Shown here: in pieces, positions 46,730-63,628 of the stretch | Layout: each line of letters begins with the position of its first letter | Position numbering within the stretch: position 1 is the stretch's first letter | Assembly (NCBI GenBank): GCA_965207035.1 | Contig: OZ242259.1 | Span: 668,502 to 732,501 of the forward strand | DNA: 64,000 nt | Source of the DNA: Bryobacterales bacterium | GTDB taxonomy: Bacteria > Acidobacteriota > Terriglobia > Bryobacterales > UBA6623 | Direction: 5' to 3' | Notes under the pieces: model-generated | The model's database searches: none | Told to the model about the DNA's origin: nothing | What the model saw: only the letters and a program-made list of their open reading frames with translations | Program-made: the position numbers and the translations under genes

Positions 46730-47400
46730 TCGAGGCCATCACGAGCTTCCGGACTTTGTTGCCGAGCTATGGAATGGGCGGGCGGTCCTCGCCGAATCCG
46801 GCGGCGATCAGCAGGGTGTAATGGGCTCGACGCCCCGGCCGCACCAGAGCGCTGTGCTCGCCGATGCGCGCTTGGGCGGCGGTGCGCTCGAAGCGGTCGA
46901 AGAGCTGACGGGCGCGCTCGCGGCCCTCGCCCAGGCGGCGGCCGGTAGGCGGTACAGGGTAAAAGCCATCAGGGAGAACTGCAGGTCAGCGTCGATCTTC
47001 AGCGGCACGGCCGAAGAGAGCGCGTCCATGTGGAAGAAGTCAATCGACTCGGCAATGGCGTTCTCGATGACCATGTGGCGGGAGTTGAAGACGAGCTCAC
47101 GGGGGAGGGAGCCGGTGCGGTCGCGGAAGGCCTTGGCGAAGCGCAGGGGGCCTCGTTCTGGGCGGTCTTGCGGACGGTGGCGTCGGCGCAGCAAGAAACA
47201 TCGTGCTCGGCGTCACGGGTGAGGATGGCGAGCACGCCGCGCTGGCGGCGGGGGCGTCCGGATACGAAGTGCTTCTTGAGGAAGGCCTCCTTGTCGTGGG
47301 GGGCGGTATGGAAGTCGAGTTTGAAGGAGGAGCCATAGGGGAGGCCGACGGAGCGGGAGGCGTCAAGCCTGGCGGTGGCGAAGCGGGGCAGGAGACCGGG
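46730..47400 (-). mobile_element. Decayed DDE transposase remnant (internal deletion, frameshifts, stop)
   Basis: Frameshifted blocks SFKLDFHT...KHFVS...ELVFNSR | MVIENAIAESIDFFHMDALSSAVPLKIDADLQ...LYRL...RRAHYTLLIAAGF...IP*LG; C-rich third codon positions like the other IS genes. Confidence 0.65.
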
Positions 47401-47824
47401 GTCGATGCGGGTTCTGACCGCAGAAACAGTGCAGATATCTGTGTGGAAATCAGTGAATCGAGTGCGAATGATTGTGATTCCTGAGAGGATGACCCGTCTG
47501 ATACCTGCAAACTACAGCGCGACTCTACAAGACTCTGTCATATCCCAGATGCTGGTGGGGATTCAGGCTGGCACCCGTCACTGAACTGGCCCCTACAGAC
47601 TCATGGTCAGTTCCAAGAGGCCTTGAAGTTCGGAGTACTGATCATGGTGTCCCTGCGCTCGAGCGATCCGAATAGCGAACCGGCGGAACTAGCACCGGTT
47701 CTTGGCGGCGGTAGGCCGCGGCTTTTCGAGCGCCACGGACTGAGCGGCGCGCCAATTGGAGTTCGGCGCTTCGGGGAGCGGCCACTCTGACGAGCCGAGG
47801 CAATGCTAGGCTTGGGATCAACCC

Positions 47825-48722: not shown

Positions 48723-48834
48723 CTTCCAGCTCATTGTACAGGCGACGTTCGAGGTGAGATCTTGTGCTCGGCGCCAACGTTGTCGCGCCGAATAGCTTCT
48801 GGCGCATCTGGAATGCACATGAGAGCTGCGCTGG

Positions 48835-51075
48835 CAGGGCTATTTTATTGTCCGTGGTTGAGGAGGCGCACAGCCGTGGGTGAGGGGCTGAGCGGGCTTT
48901 CCTGCTAGACGCTGCGATTCTCGGTTCCTCGCAGTCCGGTCCGCAGGGGCTGGACATTTTGTTGTCGATCTGTCACTCTGGGTCCGATGGGGCCGTTGCC
49001 GACCCAGCGCCGCGCTGTGGACGTGCGCGCGGTCACCGTGCGCCCGACCTTCGGCGCCCAGGAACACCGTCACTGGGACCGGCTGGTCGCGGCCCATCAC
49101 TACCTGGGGTTTGGGGGCCTGTTCGGCAAGGGCTTGCGGCAGGTGGCGACGCTGGGCTCGACGTGGGTCGCGCTGGTGGGCTGGCAGGCGGCCGCGCTCA
49201 AGCTCACGGCCCGTGACCGCTGGATCGGCTGGACCCTGGAGCAGCAGTTGCAGCGCCTGCATCTGGTGGCCCAGAACTCCCGCTTTGTGATCCTGCCGGA
49301 CTACCAGGGGGTACCCAATCTGGCCTCGCGGGTGCTGGGGCTGAGCCTGCGGCGGTTGAGCGGCGACATGCAACGCGAGCACGGATTTCCGATCTTGCTG
49401 GCGGAGTCATTCGTGGACCGGGCACTCTTCGCTGGGACCTGCTATCGGGCGGCGAACTGGCGCTCGCTGGGGTTCACCGGCGGCTACGCACGCCAGCCGG
49501 CCGCGGTGCCGGAGTGGCGCCATCACGGCCAGCCCAAGGAGGTGCTTGTGTACGAATTGGAAGCGCATGCGAGGGCGGCCTTGGGCCAGCCCGAGGAGGA
49601 TCCGGCCTGGCAGGGCCCGGCGCGGACCGCGCCGCCGTCCGCGCCGCAGTTGCGCAGCATGTTCGAGTGCCTGGGCGAGGTGCCGGACTACCGTTGCGCG
49701 CGGGGCCAGCGTTACCGCCTGCGCACGGTGCTGGTGCTGGCCATGGCGGCGCGGCTGGCCGGCTACCGCGGGGTGACCGCGTTCGCCCAGTTCGCGGCCC
49801 TGCTGGACCCGGCGCAGCGCCAGGCGGTGGGCTGTTTCTACAGTCCCAGCCGGCAGCGCTACACGACCCCGTCGATCACCACGTTCCACAACATCCTGGC
49901 CACCCTGCCGCCGGAGACGCTGGAGCAGGCGGTGGCGGCTTGGACCTGGCAGCAGAACGGGCAAGTCCCGCCGGATGAGGAGGATAGCGGCTCGCAGGAA
50001 ACGGCCGGGAGGGTCCCCGGGGAAGACGCCCGGCCCACGCTCCTGGCGGGTATCGCGATGGACGGGAAGGATGTCCGCGGGGCCTCGAAGCAGACGCCGG
50101 ACGGCCGCCGCATGCTGGTCGCGGCCGTGGAGCACTCCCCCACGCGGGTGCTGGGACAGGTCGCGGTCGCCTCCAAGACCAACGAGATCCCGGCGGTGCG
50201 CGAACTGGCCGCGGGGTTGGACCTGGCCGGATGCGCCGTCACCCTCGACGCGCTGCACGCGCAGCAGGAGACGGCGCGCAGCCTGCTCGAGGACTGCGCT
50301 GCCGACTACCTGATCACCAGCATCAAGGACAACCAGCCAACGATCCTGGACGACCTCCAGCACATGCTGTTCCCGGACGCTCCCGACCACGAGACCCTCG
50401 ACAAGGAGCACGGCCGCATCGAGCGCCGCCGCTACTGGGTGAAGGATCTCAGCGACCCGGACTGGGACGGCTATGCCGACCTGTACGGCCGCCAGCAGGC
50501 CATCCGCATCGAGCGCGAGCGGCAGGTGGTCAAGACCGGAGAGACCAGCACCGCAGTGAGCTACGCGCTGACCTCGCTGACGGCGGAGCAGGCCACGCCC
50601 GCGCAGCTGGCGGCGCTGATCCGCAACCACTGGCACATTGAGAACCGCCTGCACTACGTGCGGGACTTCACCTACGACGAGGACCGCTGCCGGGTGTGGG
50701 TGCGCGACCTGCCGCGCAATCTGGCCTGCCTGACCAACGCGGCGATCTCGATCATCCGCTGCCAGCCCGAGTTCCGCTGGGTGCCGGAGGCCAACCGCCA
50801 TTACGCGGGCCGTCCGCAGGAGGCGCTGGACCTGCTGCTGGCCCCGCCCCGGAGCTAGCCTGGCCGGCGCGCTGGCCAGCGCGCCGTGTTCCGCCGGACC
50901 CGGCGGAGCCGTACCGCTGTGTCCGCGCTTGCGATCCAGCCGTCGCAGCCGCCCGAGGCGCCTGCCCGAGCCCCTCGTGGCTGGCCGTCGGGGCCGTGTC
51001 CAGCGACTGCACAGGACGTGGAAGCAGGCATCAACCTCTCTGAGACCGCCTCAACAGGACAAAAAAATGTGCCTG
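48835..51075 (+). mobile_element. ISAs1-family insertion sequence, copy 1 (2241 bp)
   Basis: Imperfect terminal IRs CAGGGCTATTTTATTGTCC / CAGGCACATTTTTTTGTCC; 10-bp target duplication GCTGCGCTGG at 48825-48834 and 51076-51085. Confidence 0.95.
48987..50858 (+). CDS. ISAs1-family transposase with N-terminal DUF4338 (DruA-like) domain
   Basis: N-term: HHYLG, NSRFVILP, PNLASRVL, ESFVD, GTCYRAANW; C-term ISAs1 DDE: IAMDGK, TLDALHAQ, KDNQP, HGRIERR, HWHIENRLHYVRD. Confidence 0.92.
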   Translation: MGPLPTQRRAVDVRAVTVRPTFGAQEHRHWDRLVAAHHYLGFGGLFGKGLRQVATLGSTWVALVGWQAAALKLTARDRWIGWTLEQQLQRLHLVAQNSRFVILPDYQGVPNLASRVLGLSLRRLSGDMQREHGFPILLAESFVDRALFAGTCYRAANWRSLGFTGGYARQPAAVPEWRHHGQPKEVLVYELEAHARAALGQPEEDPAWQGPARTAPPSAPQLRSMFECLGEVPDYRCARGQRYRLRTVLVLAMAARLAGYRGVTAFAQFAALLDPAQRQAVGCFYSPSRQRYTTPSITTFHNILATLPPETLEQAVAAWTWQQNGQVPPDEEDSGSQETAGRVPGEDARPTLLAGIAMDGKDVRGASKQTPDGRRMLVAAVEHSPTRVLGQVAVASKTNEIPAVRELAAGLDLAGCAVTLDALHAQQETARSLLEDCAADYLITSIKDNQPTILDDLQHMLFPDAPDHETLDKEHGRIERRRYWVKDLSDPDWDGYADLYGRQQAIRIERERQVVKTGETSTAVSYALTSLTAEQATPAQLAALIRNHWHIENRLHYVRDFTYDEDRCRVWVRDLPRNLACLTNAAISIIRCQPEFRWVPEANRHYAGRPQEALDLLLAPPRS

Positions 51076-51121
51076 GCTGCGCTGGCAGCGGTCGTGAACC
51101 GGGTGGCTGTACCATGGATGG

Positions 51122-51619
51122 ATGGCGGCATTACTGCAGGGTTCAAGAGCGCCCGATTTCGCGTTGCCGGATGCCGATGGCACGCAGTTCCGCCTCTCAT
51201 CCGCGCTGCGGTCCGGCCCCGTGCTAGTGACCTTCTACAAGACGGACTGCCCAACCTGTCAGTACGGGCTTCCGTTCTTGGACCGGCTTGCCGGCGGGTT
51301 TGACGGCAGTGGCGCGACGGCTGTCGCTGTGTCTCAGGACACGCCCTTCGAATCTGAGCGTTTTTCCGCTGAGTACGGATTCTCGACCCGCCAAGTCTTT
51401 GACGCGGAGGATTCGGGGTTTCCTGTTTCCGACGCGTACGGGCTCACCAATGTGCCGTCGACGTTTCTCATTGCACAGGACGGACGAATCGCGCACACCA
51501 TGGTGAGCTGGTCCAAGGCGGACGTAGAGGAGATCGCCCGCAAGTTGAATCTCAGTCCGCCGTTCGAGCCAGGGGAGGACGTGCTCCCGTTCCGGCCTGG
51601 TTGAGGGTCACGCAACTAG
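51122..51619 (+). CDS. AhpC/TSA (TlpA-like) redoxin, probable selenoprotein with near-terminal Sec (…FRPG-U-GSRN*)
   Basis: APDFALPD, CPTC active site, YGLTNVPSTFLI; TGA 51602-51604 followed in frame by GGG TCA CGC AAC TAG and a SECIS-like hairpin. The ORF is certain; Sec readthrough is inferred. Confidence 0.82.
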
Positions 51620-51634
51620 CTCCGGTCCGGAGCT
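51605..51634 (+). promoter_or_regulatory. Putative SECIS element
   Basis: agctcc-GGTCC-ggagct hairpin (51618-51634); GGUCC starts at nt 23 from the U of UGA, within 1 nt of the fdh SECIS geometry in this window. Confidence 0.72.
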
Positions 51635-52057
51635 TCCTCTTCAGTTTGAACGTCGTGTCCGGGTAGGCCCGAAGGGTTCTCGTGCACGCGCTCCCTGCGA
51701 CCGTGCCCGAGCGCGGATGCCAAGCCGACCGACGACTCTCCGAAACGGTTCCGGAGATCATCCACCGCCCGGAGAGCACGAGACCATTTTTCTGCGCCAT
51801 CGGAGTCGAAAAGGCCCACTTGGTGCTGTGGGCTGCCTTGTAGCGAGCCTGCGTGCACGCCAAGCAATCGGATCGCTCGGTTCGGCTTGTGATGTTGATT
51901 GTAGAGAAACCGAACCGTGCTCAGTATCACTCCGTCAATTTGGGTCGCCTCGGACAATGTCTTGGAACGGGTCTGCGTGACGAAGTCCTGGTCACGGATC
52001 TTGACCTGAATCGTCTTCGCCCACAGGTGGTGTTCGCGGAGGCGTCTCGCCACTAGC

Positions 52058-54017
52058 CCTAACTTACCCGCCCAGAAAATAGACGGTAGGGCCTAACAGC
52101 TGTTGAAGCAACTGCTTAGCGTCGGATCTGGCAATTTTGTGTACCCATGTAATTGGATTGTTGACTTCCTGTATCACAATTCGATAGGGTTTGTTTAGTA
52201 GCCATGTACATCGAGTCCGTCCCCAACCGCAACTCGCCCCCGGCCATCCTCCTCCGCGAGTCCTTCCGCGTCGGCTCCAAAGTCCGCAAGCGCACCATCC
52301 TCAACCTCTCCAAGTGGCCCCCGGACCTCGTCGAGGGCCTCCGCACTCTGCTCAAGGGCGGCACTGCCGTCGCCAACCTTCAGGACTATTTCGCCATCGT
52401 CCGCTCCCGCCCCCACGGCCATGTCGCCGCCGTCCTCGGCTCCCTCCGCTCTCTCGGCCTCGACTCCCTCATCGATCCCAACCCCTCCCGCTCCCGCTCC
52501 CTCGCCATGGCCCTCGTCGTCTCGCGCATCCTCCAGCCGCGCTCCAAGCTGGCCACCTCCCGCTGCCTCGACCCCGCCTCCCTGGCCCACTCCCTCGGCG
52601 ACGAACTCCAGCTCGGCCACCCCGATGCCGACGACCTCTATGCCGCCATGGACTGGCTCCTGCCCCGCCAGCACGCCATCGAGCAGGCCCTCGCCAAACG
52701 CCATCTCAGCGACGCCTCCCTCGTCCTCGCCGACGTCACCTCCACCTACCTCGAGGGCTCCCACTGCCCCCTCGCCGCCCGCGGCCATTCCCGCGACGGC
52801 AAGCGCGGCAAGCTCCAGATCGTCTTCTCCCTGCTGTGCAACCGTGACGGCTGCCCCGTCGCCGTCCAGGTCTTCCCCGGCAACACCGCCGATCCCGCCA
52901 CCGTCGGCCCCCAGCTCGACACCCTGCGGCGCCGCTTCGGCCTCGCCCGCCTGGTGGTCGTCGGCGATCGCGGCCTGCTCACCGAGGCCCGCATCCGCGA
53001 CGAACTGCGCCCCGCCGGCCTCGACTGGATCTCCGCCTTGCGCGCCCCCGCCATCCGCGATCTCGCCCGCCAGGGCGCCTTCCAAATGTCCCTCTTCGAC
53101 CACCAGGACCTCGCCGCAATCACTTCCCCGGACTATCCCGGCGAGCGTCTGCTGCTGTGCCGCAACCCCCTGCTGGCCGCCAAGCGCGCCCGCCAGCGCG
53201 AGGCCCTGCTGCAAGCCACCGAGAAACTGCTCGACCCGATCGTCGCCGCCACCCAGCGCACCCAGCGGCCCCTGCGCCGCGCCGCCAGCATCGGCCTCCG
53301 GGTCGGCAAGGTCGTCTCCAAGTTCAAGGTGCGCAAGCATTTCGAACTGACCATCGAGGAGGGCCACTTCGGCTACCGCCGCAACCAAGCCGGCATCGAC
53401 GCCGAGGCGGCCCTGGACGGCCTCTACGTGGTCCGCACCAGCGTGGCGGCCGAGGAGCTCGGGCCGGCCGATGCCGTGCGCACCTACAAGAGCCTCAGCG
53501 CCGTCGAGCGCGCCTTCCGCAGCTTCAAGACGGTGGACCTGAAGGTCCGCCCGATCTACCACTACCTCGAAGACCGCGTGCGCGCCCACGTGCTCGTCTG
53601 CATGCTGGCTTACTACGTCGAGTGGCACATGCAGCGGCGGCTCGCCCCGCTGCTGTTCAAGGACGCCGATCCGGACGCGGCGCAAGCCGCGCGGAAGTCG
53701 GTGGTGCAGCCCGCGCAAGTCTCGCCGGAGGCCCGCGCCAAGGCACGCACCCAGCGCACTGCCGCCGGCGAACCGGTCCATAGCTTCCCAACCCTGCTGG
53801 CCGACCTGGCGACGATTGTCAAGAATCGCATCCAGCCCCATGGCGGAGGCAAACCGTTCGACATGCTCACGCGACCGACGGAATTGCAGCGCAAGGCGCT
53901 CGAACTGCTCGGAGTCAGCCTGACCTGTACCCAGTAAATCTCCAGCTGCGAAATCCTAAATCGCTGAAACTACGAGAGAAACCAAGAGCCCGACTATTTT
54001 CTGGAGGGTAAGTTAGG
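52058..54017 (+). mobile_element. IS1634-family insertion sequence (1960 bp)
   Basis: Terminal IRs CCTAACTTACCCGCCCAGAAAATAG / CCTAACTTACCCTCCAGAAAATAG; 6-bp target duplication ACTAGC at 52052-52057 and 54018-54023. Confidence 0.93.
52204..53937 (+). CDS. IS1634-family transposase
   Basis: MYIESVPNRNSPPAILLRES, DVTSTYLEG, GHSRDGK, FPGNTAD, VGDRG, DGLYVVRT, YKSLSAVERAFRSFK, RPIYH, RVRAHV. Confidence 0.93.
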   Translation: MYIESVPNRNSPPAILLRESFRVGSKVRKRTILNLSKWPPDLVEGLRTLLKGGTAVANLQDYFAIVRSRPHGHVAAVLGSLRSLGLDSLIDPNPSRSRSLAMALVVSRILQPRSKLATSRCLDPASLAHSLGDELQLGHPDADDLYAAMDWLLPRQHAIEQALAKRHLSDASLVLADVTSTYLEGSHCPLAARGHSRDGKRGKLQIVFSLLCNRDGCPVAVQVFPGNTADPATVGPQLDTLRRRFGLARLVVVGDRGLLTEARIRDELRPAGLDWISALRAPAIRDLARQGAFQMSLFDHQDLAAITSPDYPGERLLLCRNPLLAAKRARQREALLQATEKLLDPIVAATQRTQRPLRRAASIGLRVGKVVSKFKVRKHFELTIEEGHFGYRRNQAGIDAEAALDGLYVVRTSVAAEELGPADAVRTYKSLSAVERAFRSFKTVDLKVRPIYHYLEDRVRAHVLVCMLAYYVEWHMQRRLAPLLFKDADPDAAQAARKSVVQPAQVSPEARAKARTQRTAAGEPVHSFPTLLADLATIVKNRIQPHGGGKPFDMLTRPTELQRKALELLGVSLTCTQ

Positions 54018-54858
54018 ACTAGCTGGGATAACTTCGCCAGGGTGGCATCGATTAGTACCGGGTCGCGGGAGTCCACCGGGAATGTAGTTTCGTGGCTGAT
54101 TGACTTCGGGCTCGTGTTCTCAGAGACTCCCGGGGAAAACCAGGCTCCGGCATCACGTCCGAGCGACTTGCCCGCGAGGGCAACCCCTGCACGGCCGAAG
54201 TTTCGTTCGAGGAATGCCTCCCCGCGCTCCGCCGCTTGTCCGATCGTCTCGATCCCCGCCTTCCTCAATCTGGCTTGCATCACTTTCCCTACACCCGGAA
54301 TCCGGCCGATGTCCAGAGGGGCAAGAAACGCCGCCTCGGATCCTGGTTCTACGAAGAGCACTCCGTTGGGCTTGGCGAATCCCGAGCCGATCTTTGCCAT
54401 GAGGCGGGAAGTTCCGATTCCGATCGAGCAGGGCAGGGAGGTATCGCTGCGAACAGCTTCGTGCAGGGCATGGGCTGCCCGCAGTGGCGGTCCCAGCAAT
54501 CTCTGAGTCCCTGTGAGGTCGAGATAGGCTTCATCGATCGATGCCATCTCGACGCGCGGCGAGAAGCGGTCTAGCGTGTTCCGGATGCGACGCGAGTAAT
54601 GCAGGTACTTGTGCGGATTCCCCTCCAGGAAGATTGCCTGCGGACAGCGCCGGTACGCTTCTCGCAATGGCATCGCAGACCGCACGCCGAACTTGCGAGC
54701 GGCATACGAAGCAGCCGCCACGACGCCGCGTTCGCCGGGCTTTCCACCAACAACGACCGGCTTTTCCTTCAGGGATGGATCCGCAAGTTCTTCAACGGAG
54801 ACGAAGAAAGCGTCCATGTCAAGATGGAACACCACACGCTTCCTTTCGGTAGAGTCCA

Positions 54859-55467
54859 TCATCGTCGGCTGACGAAGTCATTGTGAGCGATAAAAAAGCG
54901 AAGGTCAAGCTCCCGGGATCTTGAGATGCCAATCCGTTTCGATCGCCGTACCTCGATTCGCTGGGCACGGTTGAAGAGGCGCACTGTCAATGGACCCATG
55001 AGTAAGTCGGTGCCGTAGAGGCCCATCTGGATCGCCATGGCGGCAGTCAGCTTTGCAGGGCCGCTGGCAATATCCTCAACCTTGCGCGCGGTTGCTCGGC
55101 GCTGCCTCATTGCCTCGATTCCGCACAAGGGTTCCAGAGCGCGGATCAGCACGCAGCCGGGTTGGCCGTCGGGCTCGGCTACAACGTTAAGGCAGTGATG
55201 CAGCCCGTAGATCCTGTAGACGTATGCGTGCCCGGGCGGTCCATAGATTACTTGGGTTCGAGGTGTCCGGCCAGCAGCGCTATGGGCGGCATGGTCAGCT
55301 TGGCCCAGATATGCCTCGGTCTCTACGATTCGTCCAGCTGCAAGGCCTTCATCCGTACGGTTGATCAGGACGGCACCCAGAAGATCCTTCGCTACCTCGA
55401 CCGTGGGACGGGCGTAGAAGGCCCGCACGGGCAAGTGGGTCGACAGCTTGAGTTCGTGAGCATTCAC
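54859..55467 (-). CDS. mpg: 3-methyladenine DNA glycosylase (Mpg/AAG family)
   Basis: VAKDLLG, GRIVETEAYLG, AYVYRIYGLHHCLNVV, VLIRALEP, SGPAKL, RIGIS; ATGATGA overlap with dinB. Confidence 0.93.
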   Translation of the reverse strand: MNAHELKLSTHLPVRAFYARPTVEVAKDLLGAVLINRTDEGLAAGRIVETEAYLGQADHAAHSAAGRTPRTQVIYGPPGHAYVYRIYGLHHCLNVVAEPDGQPGCVLIRALEPLCGIEAMRQRRATARKVEDIASGPAKLTAAMAIQMGLYGTDLLMGPLTVRLFNRAQRIEVRRSKRIGISRSRELDLRFFIAHNDFVSRR

Positions 55468-60797: not shown

Positions 60798-60873
60798 AAA
60801 TATCGGTTAGGTTCAGTACAGCCTAAATCTTAGGATACCATCGCATGTCATCCGCGCCGGGGAGGGGCGTTCG

Positions 60874-63114
60874 CAGGCACATTTTTTTGTCCTGTTGAGG
60901 CGGTCTCAGAGAGGTTGATGCCTGCTTCCACGTCCTGTGCAGTCGCTGGACACGGCCCCGACGGCCAGCCACGAGGGGCTCGGGCAGGCGCCTCGGGCGG
61001 CTGCGACGGCTGGATCGCAAGCGCGGACACAGCGGTACGGCTCCGCCGGGTCCGGCGGAACACGGCGCGCTGGCCAGCGCGCCGGCCAGGCTAGCTCCGG
61101 GGCGGGGCCAGCAGCAGGTCCAGCGCCTCCTGCGGACGGCCCGCGTAATGGCGGTTGGCCTCCGGCACCCAGCGGAACTCGGGCTGGCAGCGGATGATCG
61201 AGATCGCCGCGTTGGTCAGGCAGGCCAGATTGCGCGGCAGGTCGCGCACCCACACCCGGCAGCGGTCCTCGTCGTAGGTGAAGTCCCGCACGTAGTGCAG
61301 GCGGTTCTCAATGTGCCAGTGGTTGCGGATCAGCGCCGCCAGCTGCGCGGGCGTGGCCTGCTCCGCCGTCAGCGAGGTCAGCGCGTAGCTCACTGCGGTG
61401 CTGGTCTCTCCGGTCTTGACCACCTGCCGCTCGCGCTCGATGCGGATGGCCTGCTGGCGGCCGTACAGGTCGGCATAGCCGTCCCAGTCCGGGTCGCTGA
61501 GATCCTTCACCCAGTAGCGGCGGCGCTCGATGCGGCCGTGCTCCTTGTCGAGGGTCTCGTGGTCGGGAGCGTCCGGGAACAGCATGTGCTGGAGGTCGTC
61601 CAGGATCGTTGGCTGGTTGTCCTTGATGCTGGTGATCAGGTAGTCGGCAGCGCAGTCCTCGAGCAGGCTGCGCGCCGTCTCCTGCTGCGCGTGCAGCGCG
61701 TCGAGGGTGACGGCGCATCCGGCCAGGTCCAACCCCGCGGCCAGTTCGCGCACCGCCGGGATCTCGTTGGTCTTGGAGGCGACCGCGACCTGTCCCAGCA
61801 CCCGCGTGGGGGAGTGCTCCACGGCCGCGACCAGCATGCGGCGGCCGTCCGGCGTCTGCTTCGAGGCCCCGCGGACATCCTTCCCGTCCATCGCGATACC
61901 CGCCAGGAGCGTGGGCCGGGCGTCTTCCCCGGGGACCCTCCCGGCCGTTTCCTGCGAGCCGCTATCCTCCTCATCCGGCGGGACTTGCCCGTTCTGCTGC
62001 CAGGTCCAAGCCGCCACCGCCTGCTCCAGCGTCTCCGGCGGCAGGGTGGCCAGGATGTTGTGGAACGTGGTGATCGACGGGGTCGTGTAGCGCTGCCGGC
62101 TGGGACTGTAGAAACAGCCCACCGCCTGGCGCTGCGCCGGGTCCAGCAGGGCCGCGAACTGGGCGAACGCGGTCACCCCGCGGTAGCCGGCCAGCCGCGC
62201 CGCCATGGCCAGCACCAGCACCGTGCGCAGGCGGTAACGCTGGCCCCGCGCGCAACGGTAGTCCGGCACCTCGCCCAGGCACTCGAACATGCTGCGCAAC
62301 TGCGGCGCGGACGGCGGCGCGGTCCGCGCCGGGCCCTGCCAGGCCGGATCCTCCTCGGGCTGGCCCAAGGCCGCCCTCGCATGCGCTTCCAATTCGTACA
62401 CAAGCACCTCCTTGGGCTGGCCGTGATGGCGCCACTCCGGCACCGCGGCCGGCTGGCGTGCGTAGCCGCCGGTGAACCCCAGCGAGCGCCAGTTCGCCGC
62501 CCGATAGCAGGTCCCAGCGAAGAGTGCCCGGTCCACGAATGACTCCGCCAGCAAGATCGGAAATCCGTGCTCGCGTTGCATGTCGCCGCTCAACCGCCGC
62601 AGGCTCAGCCCCAGCACCCGCGAGGCCAGATTGGGTACCCCCTGGTAGTCCGGCAGGATCACAAAGCGGGAGTTCTGGGCCACCAGATGCAGGCGCTGCA
62701 ACTGCTGCTCCAGGGTCCAGCCGATCCAGCGGTCACGGGCCGTGAGCTTGAGCGCGGCCGCCTGCCAGCCCACCAGCGCGACCCACGTCGAGCCCAGCGT
62801 CGCCACCTGCCGCAAGCCCTTGCCGAACAGGCCCCCAAACCCCAGGTAGTGATGGGCCGCGACCAGCCGGTCCCAGTGACGGTGTTCCTGGGCGCCGAAG
62901 GTCGGGCGCACGGTGACCGCGCGCACGTCCACAGCGCGGCGCTGGGTCGGCAACGGCCCCATCGGACCCAGAGTGACAGATCGACAACAAAATGTCCAGC
63001 CCCTGCGGACCGGACTGCGAGGAACCGAGAATCGCAGCGTCTAGCAGGAAAGCCCGCTCAGCCCCTCACCCACGGCTGTGCGCCTCCTCAACCACGGACA
63101 ATAAAATAGCCCTG
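60874..63114 (-). mobile_element. ISAs1-family insertion sequence, copy 2 (2241 bp, inverted relative to copy 1)
   Basis: Same IRs and same length as copy 1; its own 10-bp target duplication GGGGCGTTCG at 60864-60873 and 63115-63124. Confidence 0.95.
61091..62962 (-). CDS. ISAs1-family transposase with N-terminal DUF4338 domain (copy 2)
   Basis: 623-aa translation identical to 48987..50858. Confidence 0.92.
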   Translation of the reverse strand: MGPLPTQRRAVDVRAVTVRPTFGAQEHRHWDRLVAAHHYLGFGGLFGKGLRQVATLGSTWVALVGWQAAALKLTARDRWIGWTLEQQLQRLHLVAQNSRFVILPDYQGVPNLASRVLGLSLRRLSGDMQREHGFPILLAESFVDRALFAGTCYRAANWRSLGFTGGYARQPAAVPEWRHHGQPKEVLVYELEAHARAALGQPEEDPAWQGPARTAPPSAPQLRSMFECLGEVPDYRCARGQRYRLRTVLVLAMAARLAGYRGVTAFAQFAALLDPAQRQAVGCFYSPSRQRYTTPSITTFHNILATLPPETLEQAVAAWTWQQNGQVPPDEEDSGSQETAGRVPGEDARPTLLAGIAMDGKDVRGASKQTPDGRRMLVAAVEHSPTRVLGQVAVASKTNEIPAVRELAAGLDLAGCAVTLDALHAQQETARSLLEDCAADYLITSIKDNQPTILDDLQHMLFPDAPDHETLDKEHGRIERRRYWVKDLSDPDWDGYADLYGRQQAIRIERERQVVKTGETSTAVSYALTSLTAEQATPAQLAALIRNHWHIENRLHYVRDFTYDEDRCRVWVRDLPRNLACLTNAAISIIRCQPEFRWVPEANRHYAGRPQEALDLLLAPPRS

Positions 63115-63628
63115 GGGGCGTTCGAGGCCATGAGCCAGTTGGCAAGGTGTCTCCAACAGTCTCAGTGATGGCGATTGGAAGCGTCGAAGCGCTTCGGTGG
63201 AATGCCACATGACGGATCGATTGGGTGCTCGGTCGGAAATCGGCATTCTCTCACTCCGGCGGAGGACGCGACAGCCCGCTTACGATAGAGGAGATCAACA
63301 GCATCGGCGCTGTTGTGGGTATGCGGCCAATCGAGCTGAGGGAGAACTGGATGCGGCGGGATTCGTGCGGGCCTCGAAAGTGTGCGAAATCAGGTGGCCG
63401 GACCGATAGGGCCCGCGGCCTCTCCGGCGTTCTGCTCCCCGGTCATGTTGGGCCGGATCGTACACGTGGAACACTGGGGCTCTTGTCGCGATCCGCACTA
63501 GTCCCGAGGCCCGTGGAATTCGTGGCGGGATCGCTCCCGGCCCTCCCCGGCTCCCAAGTCTGGAGGTCCATTCGGCTCGCACCCAGTCCTGGCGATCTTT
63601 CGGAATCGCTTGCCTGGAGATCGTTCAA

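Follow-up and report, generated by a model that had tools for sequence, protein, structure and literature searches.

The window analysed here, a 64,000-nucleotide stretch of the genome of a Bryobacterales bacterium (contig OZ242259.1), contains two copies of an insertion sequence (IS) of the ISAs1 family, whose transposase is preceded in the same open reading frame (ORF) by an additional domain that matches the Pfam family DruA (PF14236, also DUF4338). Insertion sequences are usually seen as a transposase between two repeats. In predicted structure, the extra domain is a GNAT domain whose nearest solved relative is Mom of phage Mu, and it is a general module going with six IS families (ISAs1, IS4, IS701, IS66, ISKra4, and IS1634), a generality that the first-pass annotation of the window had missed. 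The domain resembles Mom, yet it belongs neither to the Mom family PF25680 nor to Druantia. With moderate confidence, we propose that it is a Mom-type GNAT DNA-base acyltransferase acting in cis for the element.

The domain was modelled by AlphaFold2 from a 128-row alignment (mean pLDDT 95.0). The Foldseek search of the PDB placed Mu Mom (8bv8) at rank 1 with an E value of 1.6e-6 (next GNAT 4.6e-6), and in the VIA-align comparison with 48,161 chains Mom reached a Z score of 15.5 (root-mean-square deviation [rmsd] 3.8, 171 residues aligned), the next GNAT having Z 13.0. The model of an unfused relative of 307 amino acids (aa) again found Mom first, both in Foldseek and in VIA-align (Z 14.3, rmsd 3.8, 164 aligned, next 11.9), and Mom was the top solved match in all four PDB searches carried out with the two models. 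Among viral structure models, a phage protein named Mom stood at rank 3. By sequence, the PDB gave no hits at E 10 for the domain and just two chance hits for an alignment of it. The GNAT/Mom-like character that had been guessed for the N-terminal region is thus what the predicted fold suggests. The homodimer prediction of the domain scored 0.00, which is evidence neither way.

Mom moves glycine from a charged tRNA to the N6 of adenine in double-stranded DNA, forming 6-NcmdA, and H58, Y59, R111, S124, D149, R151, and Y159 are described as its likely active-site residues (PMC13219725). When the domain family was compared with 121 Mom sequences by hhalign (probability 13%, P 0.0022), H38/Y39 were paired with H58/Y59 of Mom, N111/S114 with N121/S124, D144 with D149, and G150/Y153 with G156/Y159. 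The Mom-like family phrog_1384 matched at E 0.062, and PF25680 matched 3 of 98 relatives, one over the cut-off and two below it. The window domain carries all of these residues together with R99 and E140, and it has leucine at position 147. In 66 domains that span all element types, a set biased towards conservation because it was gathered by similarity to the query, H38, R99, and E140 were present in every member, S114 and G150 in 65, Y153 in 64, and D144 in 55 (D or E in 62). The counterparts of H58, Y59, S124, D149, and Y159 of Mom are thus near-invariant. Since the conserved residues map to the Mom active site, they argue that the domain is a catalyst. The position of N111, at the place of the GNAT coenzyme A (CoA) loop, is occupied by Asn in 82% and by His in 12% of the family. 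The usual GNAT CoA loop has Gly at that position, and the Asn or His found here, as in Mom, would make a charged tRNA a likelier donor than acetyl-CoA. Like Mom, the domain is basic (net charge +10; family median +11) and is carried by a transposing element.

Matches to the domain were found in 5761 clusters at 50% identity (E 0.001), and a scan of the members of at least 300 aa among the best 150 clusters detected a transposase domain in 75 of 98. At least 585 of 598 candidate stretches from GTDB encode a relative, and 30 of 401 genomes of a phylum sample gave matches. For the gene context, the 29 best loci outside the genome of the window were taken, of which 27 were examined and two fragments were left out. 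The module was linked to a transposase in 22 of the 27 loci: six were ISAs1 fusions and four IS4/Tn5-type fusions, while it stood beside IS66 genes in eight loci, beside ISKra4 in two, and beside IS4 and IS1634 in one each. For IS701, one fusion (P0213) and one neighbour (L084) were found. Fusion partners of the domain are ISAs1, IS4, and IS701 transposases, while a separate gene for it, up- or downstream of the transposase, stands beside IS66, ISKra4, IS1634, IS4, and IS701. In three genomes this gene is enclosed by the repeats of multi-copy IS66-like elements, one of them a 3047-bp element of the genome of the window, and an IS4 element likewise has it between its repeats. The genome of the window itself holds a second ISAs1 fusion family (614 aa, three copies), the domain of which is 51-53% identical. 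On a tree made by a quick method and left unrooted, 38 ISAs1 fusions fell on one side of a branch (support 95), five IS4 fusions on that of another (support 97), and the IS66 partners were scattered. As the fusion partners differ, at least three separate fusions must be assumed, and because the same part travels with six IS families, it likely serves the element itself.

Purifying selection acts on the domain. The median ratio of non-synonymous to synonymous substitution rates (dN/dS) was 0.28 for the domain, 0.35 for the PF13808 part of the transposase, and 0.39 for the DDE core, as determined on 274 pairs of moderate dS from 27 distinct coding sequences (38 gathered, duplicates dropped) by a simple counting method, with high GC content at third codon positions and with pairs that are not independent. 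Neutral evolution, which had been named as a finding that would speak against a role of the domain, is therefore not what the sequences indicate. Invariant columns made up 39% of the domain, 29% of PF13808, and 26% of the DDE core, and of 351 pairs, 92% had the domain better conserved than the transposase part. The identities of the two parts were correlated (Spearman 0.86), which fits joint inheritance. Among copies within the genome, the domain showed 5-8 synonymous and 1 non-synonymous differences and the DDE core 7-9 and 17, respectively (two related alleles; Fisher test of domain versus core, P 0.026 and 0.064). The copies found in metagenome-assembled genomes (MAGs) of Alphaproteobacteria have a dS of only 0.6-0.8 from the window copy, which suggests transfer between phyla.

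The element itself is real and recently mobile. Its two 2241-bp copies, at 48835-51075 (+) and 60874-63114 (−), are identical over the complete 2241 nt, and the features of the first one are collected in Table 1. The first-pass annotation had described a 623-aa ORF with an extra N-terminal part inside the inverted repeats of an active ISAs1 element, and both the ORF and every motif quoted from it were found. The transposase is a member of the ISAs1 family: it scored 183.3 bits against the NCBIfam model NF033564 (cut-off 70), its DDE triad D359/D421/E552 is intact (of 93 full-length relatives, 91, 89, and 88 retain the respective residue), and it is enclosed by inverted repeats and 10-bp duplications. 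ISAs1 target duplications are in the range of about 8-10 bp. The statement that the fusion had moved as a unit twice held for the window, where two identical copies each have their own 10-bp duplication, but it understated the mobility, as six insertions exist in the genome. Five are full copies of 97-100% identity, no two of which have the same 10-bp duplication and whose duplications have no evident consensus in common; the sixth is a split copy with a 10-bp duplication of its own. One further near-full copy with altered ends and several fragments were also found. The empty site of the first copy was recovered, as a contig from a public sequencing run joins 48824 to 51076.

Table 1. Coordinates of the features of the GNAT-ISAs1 element in the window
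Feature	Position	Strand	Basis or remark
Left 10-bp target-site duplication, GCTGCGCTGG	48825..48834	.	Same 10 bp on both sides of copy 1
Left inverted repeat, 19 bp	48835..48853	+	15/19 positions agree with the right repeat
Putative weak sigma70-type promoter (TGGACA, 17 nt, CACTCT)	48951..48979	+	Ends 7 nt before the ATG
Fusion ORF, GNAT domain + ISAs1 transposase, 623 aa	48987..50858	+	ORF list, Pfam, NCBIfam
Predicted Mom-like GNAT domain, aa about 10-202	49014..49592	+	Pfam, predicted structure, alignments
PF13808 DDE_Tnp_1-associated domain, aa 227-320	49665..49946	+	Pfam
ISAs1 DDE catalytic core, aa 355-590 (PF01609 aa 355-569)	50049..50756	+	Pfam, NCBIfam, alignment
Right inverted repeat	51057..51075	-	Partner of the left 19-bp repeat
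Right 10-bp target-site duplication	51076..51085	.	Matches left GCTGCGCTGG
Second element copy	60874..63114	-	ORF 61091-62962; sequence identical to copy 1
Duplication of copy 2, GGGGCGTTCG	60864-60873 and 63115-63124		Flanks the second copy

Both insertion sites of the window fall between called ORFs, and no clear gene is interrupted by either copy (the longest frames across the joined flanks are of 72-174 codons); a small ORF and a peroxiredoxin-like gene are the neighbours of the element. The CAGGG start of the left inverted repeat is common to most of 16 aligned relatives, and SASNY sites in the ends were few and uninformative. One of the genomic copies (G000:C1 659942-662182) has the same DDE core as the window copy and eight synonymous differences in the GNAT part, and is probably a mosaic that arose by recombination between copies. 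The nearest named relatives of the element are in Bryobacterales MAGs, DNA matches were obtained in all 12 genomes of the same genus, two of which carry at least 12 near-full copies, and the public runs with an organism label that contain the element are mostly sponge metagenomes. The element shares with known ISAs1 elements (e.g. ISKpn31 and ISPa60) the DDE transposase with PF13808 and PF01609, short imperfect inverted repeats, and the 10-bp duplication, but it is longer (2241 bp, 623 aa) through the 200-aa N-terminal GNAT part, whereas ordinary ISAs1 open frames have about 380-410 codons. That ordinary ISAs1 transposases lack the domain, as had been assumed, was borne out by plasmid records, where the transposase part had 804 matches versus 2 for the N-terminal part.

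A TGGACA-like hexamer was present at the same spacing in all 17 aligned upstream regions, and in most of these relatives the hexamer, a 17-nt spacer, and a weak −10 box end 6-8 nt ahead of the start codon. The consensus promoter scan returned none, the putative promoter falling below its threshold. The arrangement suggests low expression from an mRNA that would be leaderless. Contigs of RNA runs (one data set apparently filed twice and one more run) contained short pieces of the element at depth 2-7, in which DNA may be included. On the coding strand the element has a single gene among the ORFs of at least 80 aa listed, and antisense ORFs of 180 and 464 aa lie inside it. In toxin-antitoxin pairs, a GNAT toxin has a small antitoxin gene next to it, and its acetyl-CoA loop is rich in Gly; such a toxin was rejected as an identity for the domain on account of the single coding-strand gene and of N111 at the loop position.

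The ORF of the window element is in frame, unlike that of 9 of the 20 relatives examined (8 distinct; L068, L072, L073, L075, L078, L085, L093, L094, and L095), in which a stop occurs 15-60 codons past the KxNQ motif and the remaining DDE core continues in the +1 frame. A T-run followed by a C-run stands at the junction of these ISAs1-GNAT fusions, about 50-60 nt past the KxNQ codons, being exactly T5C5 in L068 and L075, and in this they are like a Roseiflexus IS with a T5C5 slippage site (PMC5009743); the consulted parts of that paper make no mention of ISAs1. Judged from the junction sequences, programmed transcriptional slippage is likely in the frame-broken fusions, the main product of which would be the GNAT domain with the end-binding domain, minus the last catalytic residue.

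Relatives of the domain often carry a further N-terminal domain of some 80 aa, for which three helices and short strands are predicted. It was present in every one of the 22 unfused forms and in each of the 5 IS4 fusions, but in 6 of 38 ISAs1 fusions, and the window lineage does not have it. A parsimony guess on the unrooted tree would have it lost in the ISAs1 fusions. In structure searches with the 307-aa model, the GNAT part filled both match lists. A 3047-bp IS66-like element of the same genome (L003:4632-7678, G000:C1 about 1099632-1102678), present in three near-identical copies (the others in L008 and L009), consists of a TnpC gene and a three-helix-GNAT gene only, with no tnpA or tnpB seen; its L003 copy splits a type I restriction hsdS-like gene.

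According to the explanation we favour, a Mom-type acyltransferase acting in cis, the domain would transfer an acyl or aminoacyl group to DNA bases to the benefit of the element. The DNA substrate would be brought in by the PF13808 part, which is likely the end-binding part of the transposase, or by the three-helix domain in the separate-gene forms, and either tether would stand in for the insertion of Mom. The mark would keep host nucleases off the element ends or the transposition intermediates, or else tune transposition. A benefit in cis is favoured over one for the host because selection acts on each mobile copy and fusion has been repeated. A wider claim, which we regard as less likely than not, is that at least six bacterial IS families carry a Mom-type, charged-tRNA-dependent DNA hypermodifier hidden under the name DruA. 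The transposase, or a three-helix domain of the enzyme's own, would bring it to the element in cis, and by marking element DNA it would help that DNA to escape restriction and cross phyla. The literature search, with ISfinder and supplements outside its scope, found no paper linking the domain to transposons. An analogy is offered by the TET/JBP dioxygenases of fungal DNA transposons, likewise a DNA-modifying family captured by many unrelated transposon lineages, although these are eukaryotic and of other chemistry, and the comparison is an analogy only (PMC12730594).

Several observations weigh against this explanation. Sequence similarity to Mom is weak (13-18% identity), the window protein has no PF25680 match at E 0.1, and the Foldseek margin of Mom over other GNATs is small. 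Where Mom has its helix-turn-helix (HTH)-like insertion (175-209), the deletion of which abolishes activity, the domain has a short two-strand hairpin (aa 167-179), and the Mom study itself reports that substrates could not be predicted from structure (PMC13219725). R99 is invariant, but it was equated with R111 of Mom by position, both standing where the same strand ends, as hhalign left the two unpaired. At position 147, the best candidate for R151 of Mom, 90 of 93 full-length relatives have R or K, but all four distinct alleles of this genome have Leu, and the window lineage may be weakened by L147; R145, which is present in the window domain, might act as the stand-in. The domain also differs from Mom in being fused to a transposase and, in relatives, to the three-helix domain. 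For the latter, only weak Pfam winged-helix/HTH matches were obtained (PaaX in 2 of 30 members), and its sequence comparison with the PDB gave nothing under E 1 (best E 1.1). Finally, 5 of the 27 loci had no adjacent transposase in the DNA examined.

Among the unfused GNAT genes without an adjoining transposase are those of L098 (G377), L114 (G050), and L115 (G045); that of L098 lies between DAHP synthase and dCTP deaminase genes and is perhaps a domesticated copy.

Alternatively, the domain could be an active acyltransferase whose target is a protein (the transposase itself or a host factor) or an RNA (tRNA), serving as a transposition regulator or a mild addiction toxin. Most structural neighbours among the GNATs act on proteins or small molecules, the DNA-binding insertion of Mom is absent, and the conserved catalytic-type residues would suit any substrate. 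DUF4338 is moreover fused to DndF in some proteins, where it has been taken for a GNAT that may act as an effector on protein targets (PMC10853773), the only passage found that calls DUF4338 a GNAT; it concerns defence, and the main text of that paper, as far as consulted, draws no link to transposases. We nevertheless consider this alternative unlikely, as Mom led all other GNATs by 2.4-2.5 Z and with a larger number of aligned residues, the usual Gly of the CoA loop is replaced as in Mom, and the coding strand of the 2241-bp element offers no separate antitoxin-like gene among ORFs of at least 80 aa. One module serving six unrelated transposase families is more easily explained by a shared substrate such as DNA.

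It is improbable that the domain is a non-catalytic module, descended from a Mom-like ancestor, that binds DNA or a host factor for target choice, end binding, or synapsis. The element is active with L147, the domain is basic, and the frameshift in many relatives would make the GNAT part with the end-binding domain the main product, all of which would suit binding; yet the invariant residues cluster at the active-site positions of Mom, the target duplications of the full copies point to no evident consensus, and in many cases a gene of its own, apart from the transposase, encodes the module.

A role as anti-phage or otherwise host-serving cargo, Druantia-like and kept for its help to the cell, is improbable as well. 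Modifying host or phage DNA could affect infection, and the Pfam model DruA is matched: as the first-pass annotation had stated, the N-terminal region matches DUF4338 (PF14236 at aa 24-167, E 2.9e-22, 79.6 bits versus 27), the alignment covering only positions 58-220 of the 297 of the model. Type I Druantia is defined by druA-E together, with PF14236 listed as its DruA (PMC7251935). In PADLOC, no family matched the window fusion at E 0.1, nor was there any match for the unfused 307-aa relative, whereas a true DruA of 677 aa encoded in the same genome scored 7.6e-205. The profile of the IS domain aligned with this true DruA over one 18-residue stretch only, in which RDxWIGW is shared, and the 2241-bp element, having a single gene, lacks druB-E. 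Identity with type I DruA (PADLOC PDLC00001/2) was thus ruled out, and neither the assignment to Druantia DruA nor the defence cargo suggested with it could be upheld. A host-benefit cargo would also need one copy only, yet the domain is purified among the copies. The true DruA locus (L002:5355-19974, G000:C1 about 1061-1076 kb) contains genes of an HATPase, the 677-aa DruA, a 1021-aa protein without a family, and an SNF2 helicase, with the C-terminal part of DruE and a NERD helicase on the opposite strand, an arrangement that is Druantia-like but unusual. Of the 20 PF14236 matches in the genome, 16 are the IS elements identified here, two belong to the single true DruA gene, and two more are fragments, alongside one further hit of fragment type.

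It is hardly credible that the domain was picked up a single time as a neutral passenger and is now in decay: L147 of this lineage and the absence of the domain from nearly all plasmid-borne ISAs1, which indicates that ISAs1 transposition can do without it, would fit, but the idea is largely refuted by a dN/dS below that of the transposase and faces 5761 clusters and separate fusions to three transposase families.

No match was found in 50,697 phage records, and IMG/VR gave five loci with an identity of 36-38%, of which two span just 47 aa. In one IMG/VR viral contig (42,680 nt), the domain occurs near both ends (L133 and L134, 38% identity). That the domain is rare on sequenced plasmids and absent from these phage records may be the reason why it escaped notice.

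Two other mobile sequences were seen in the window. An IS at 52053-54051, which looks IS1634-like, contains a 577-aa ORF (52204-53937) without a Pfam or NCBIfam match and has a second copy, 99.5% identical, at G000:C1 2539756-2541756; its insertion has left a DNA polymerase IV (dinB) gene in two pieces, 53915-54862 and 51616-52053. Fragments resembling another transposase lie at 46808-47510 and include a 128-aa ORF on the minus strand (46808-47194) with no NCBIfam match.

The results have a consequence for annotation: IS elements account for most PF14236 matches in this genome, so counts of Druantia that rely on Pfam come out too high. If the domain modifies DNA, its 5761 clusters would represent a large cellular branch of Mom-like enzymes, perhaps with a new base chemistry, for which the work on Mom offers a ready assay. 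A conserved enzyme module found in six IS families, three of which have it fused to their transposase, suggests that the life of these elements includes an unstudied step, which may be protection from host nucleases or control by them.

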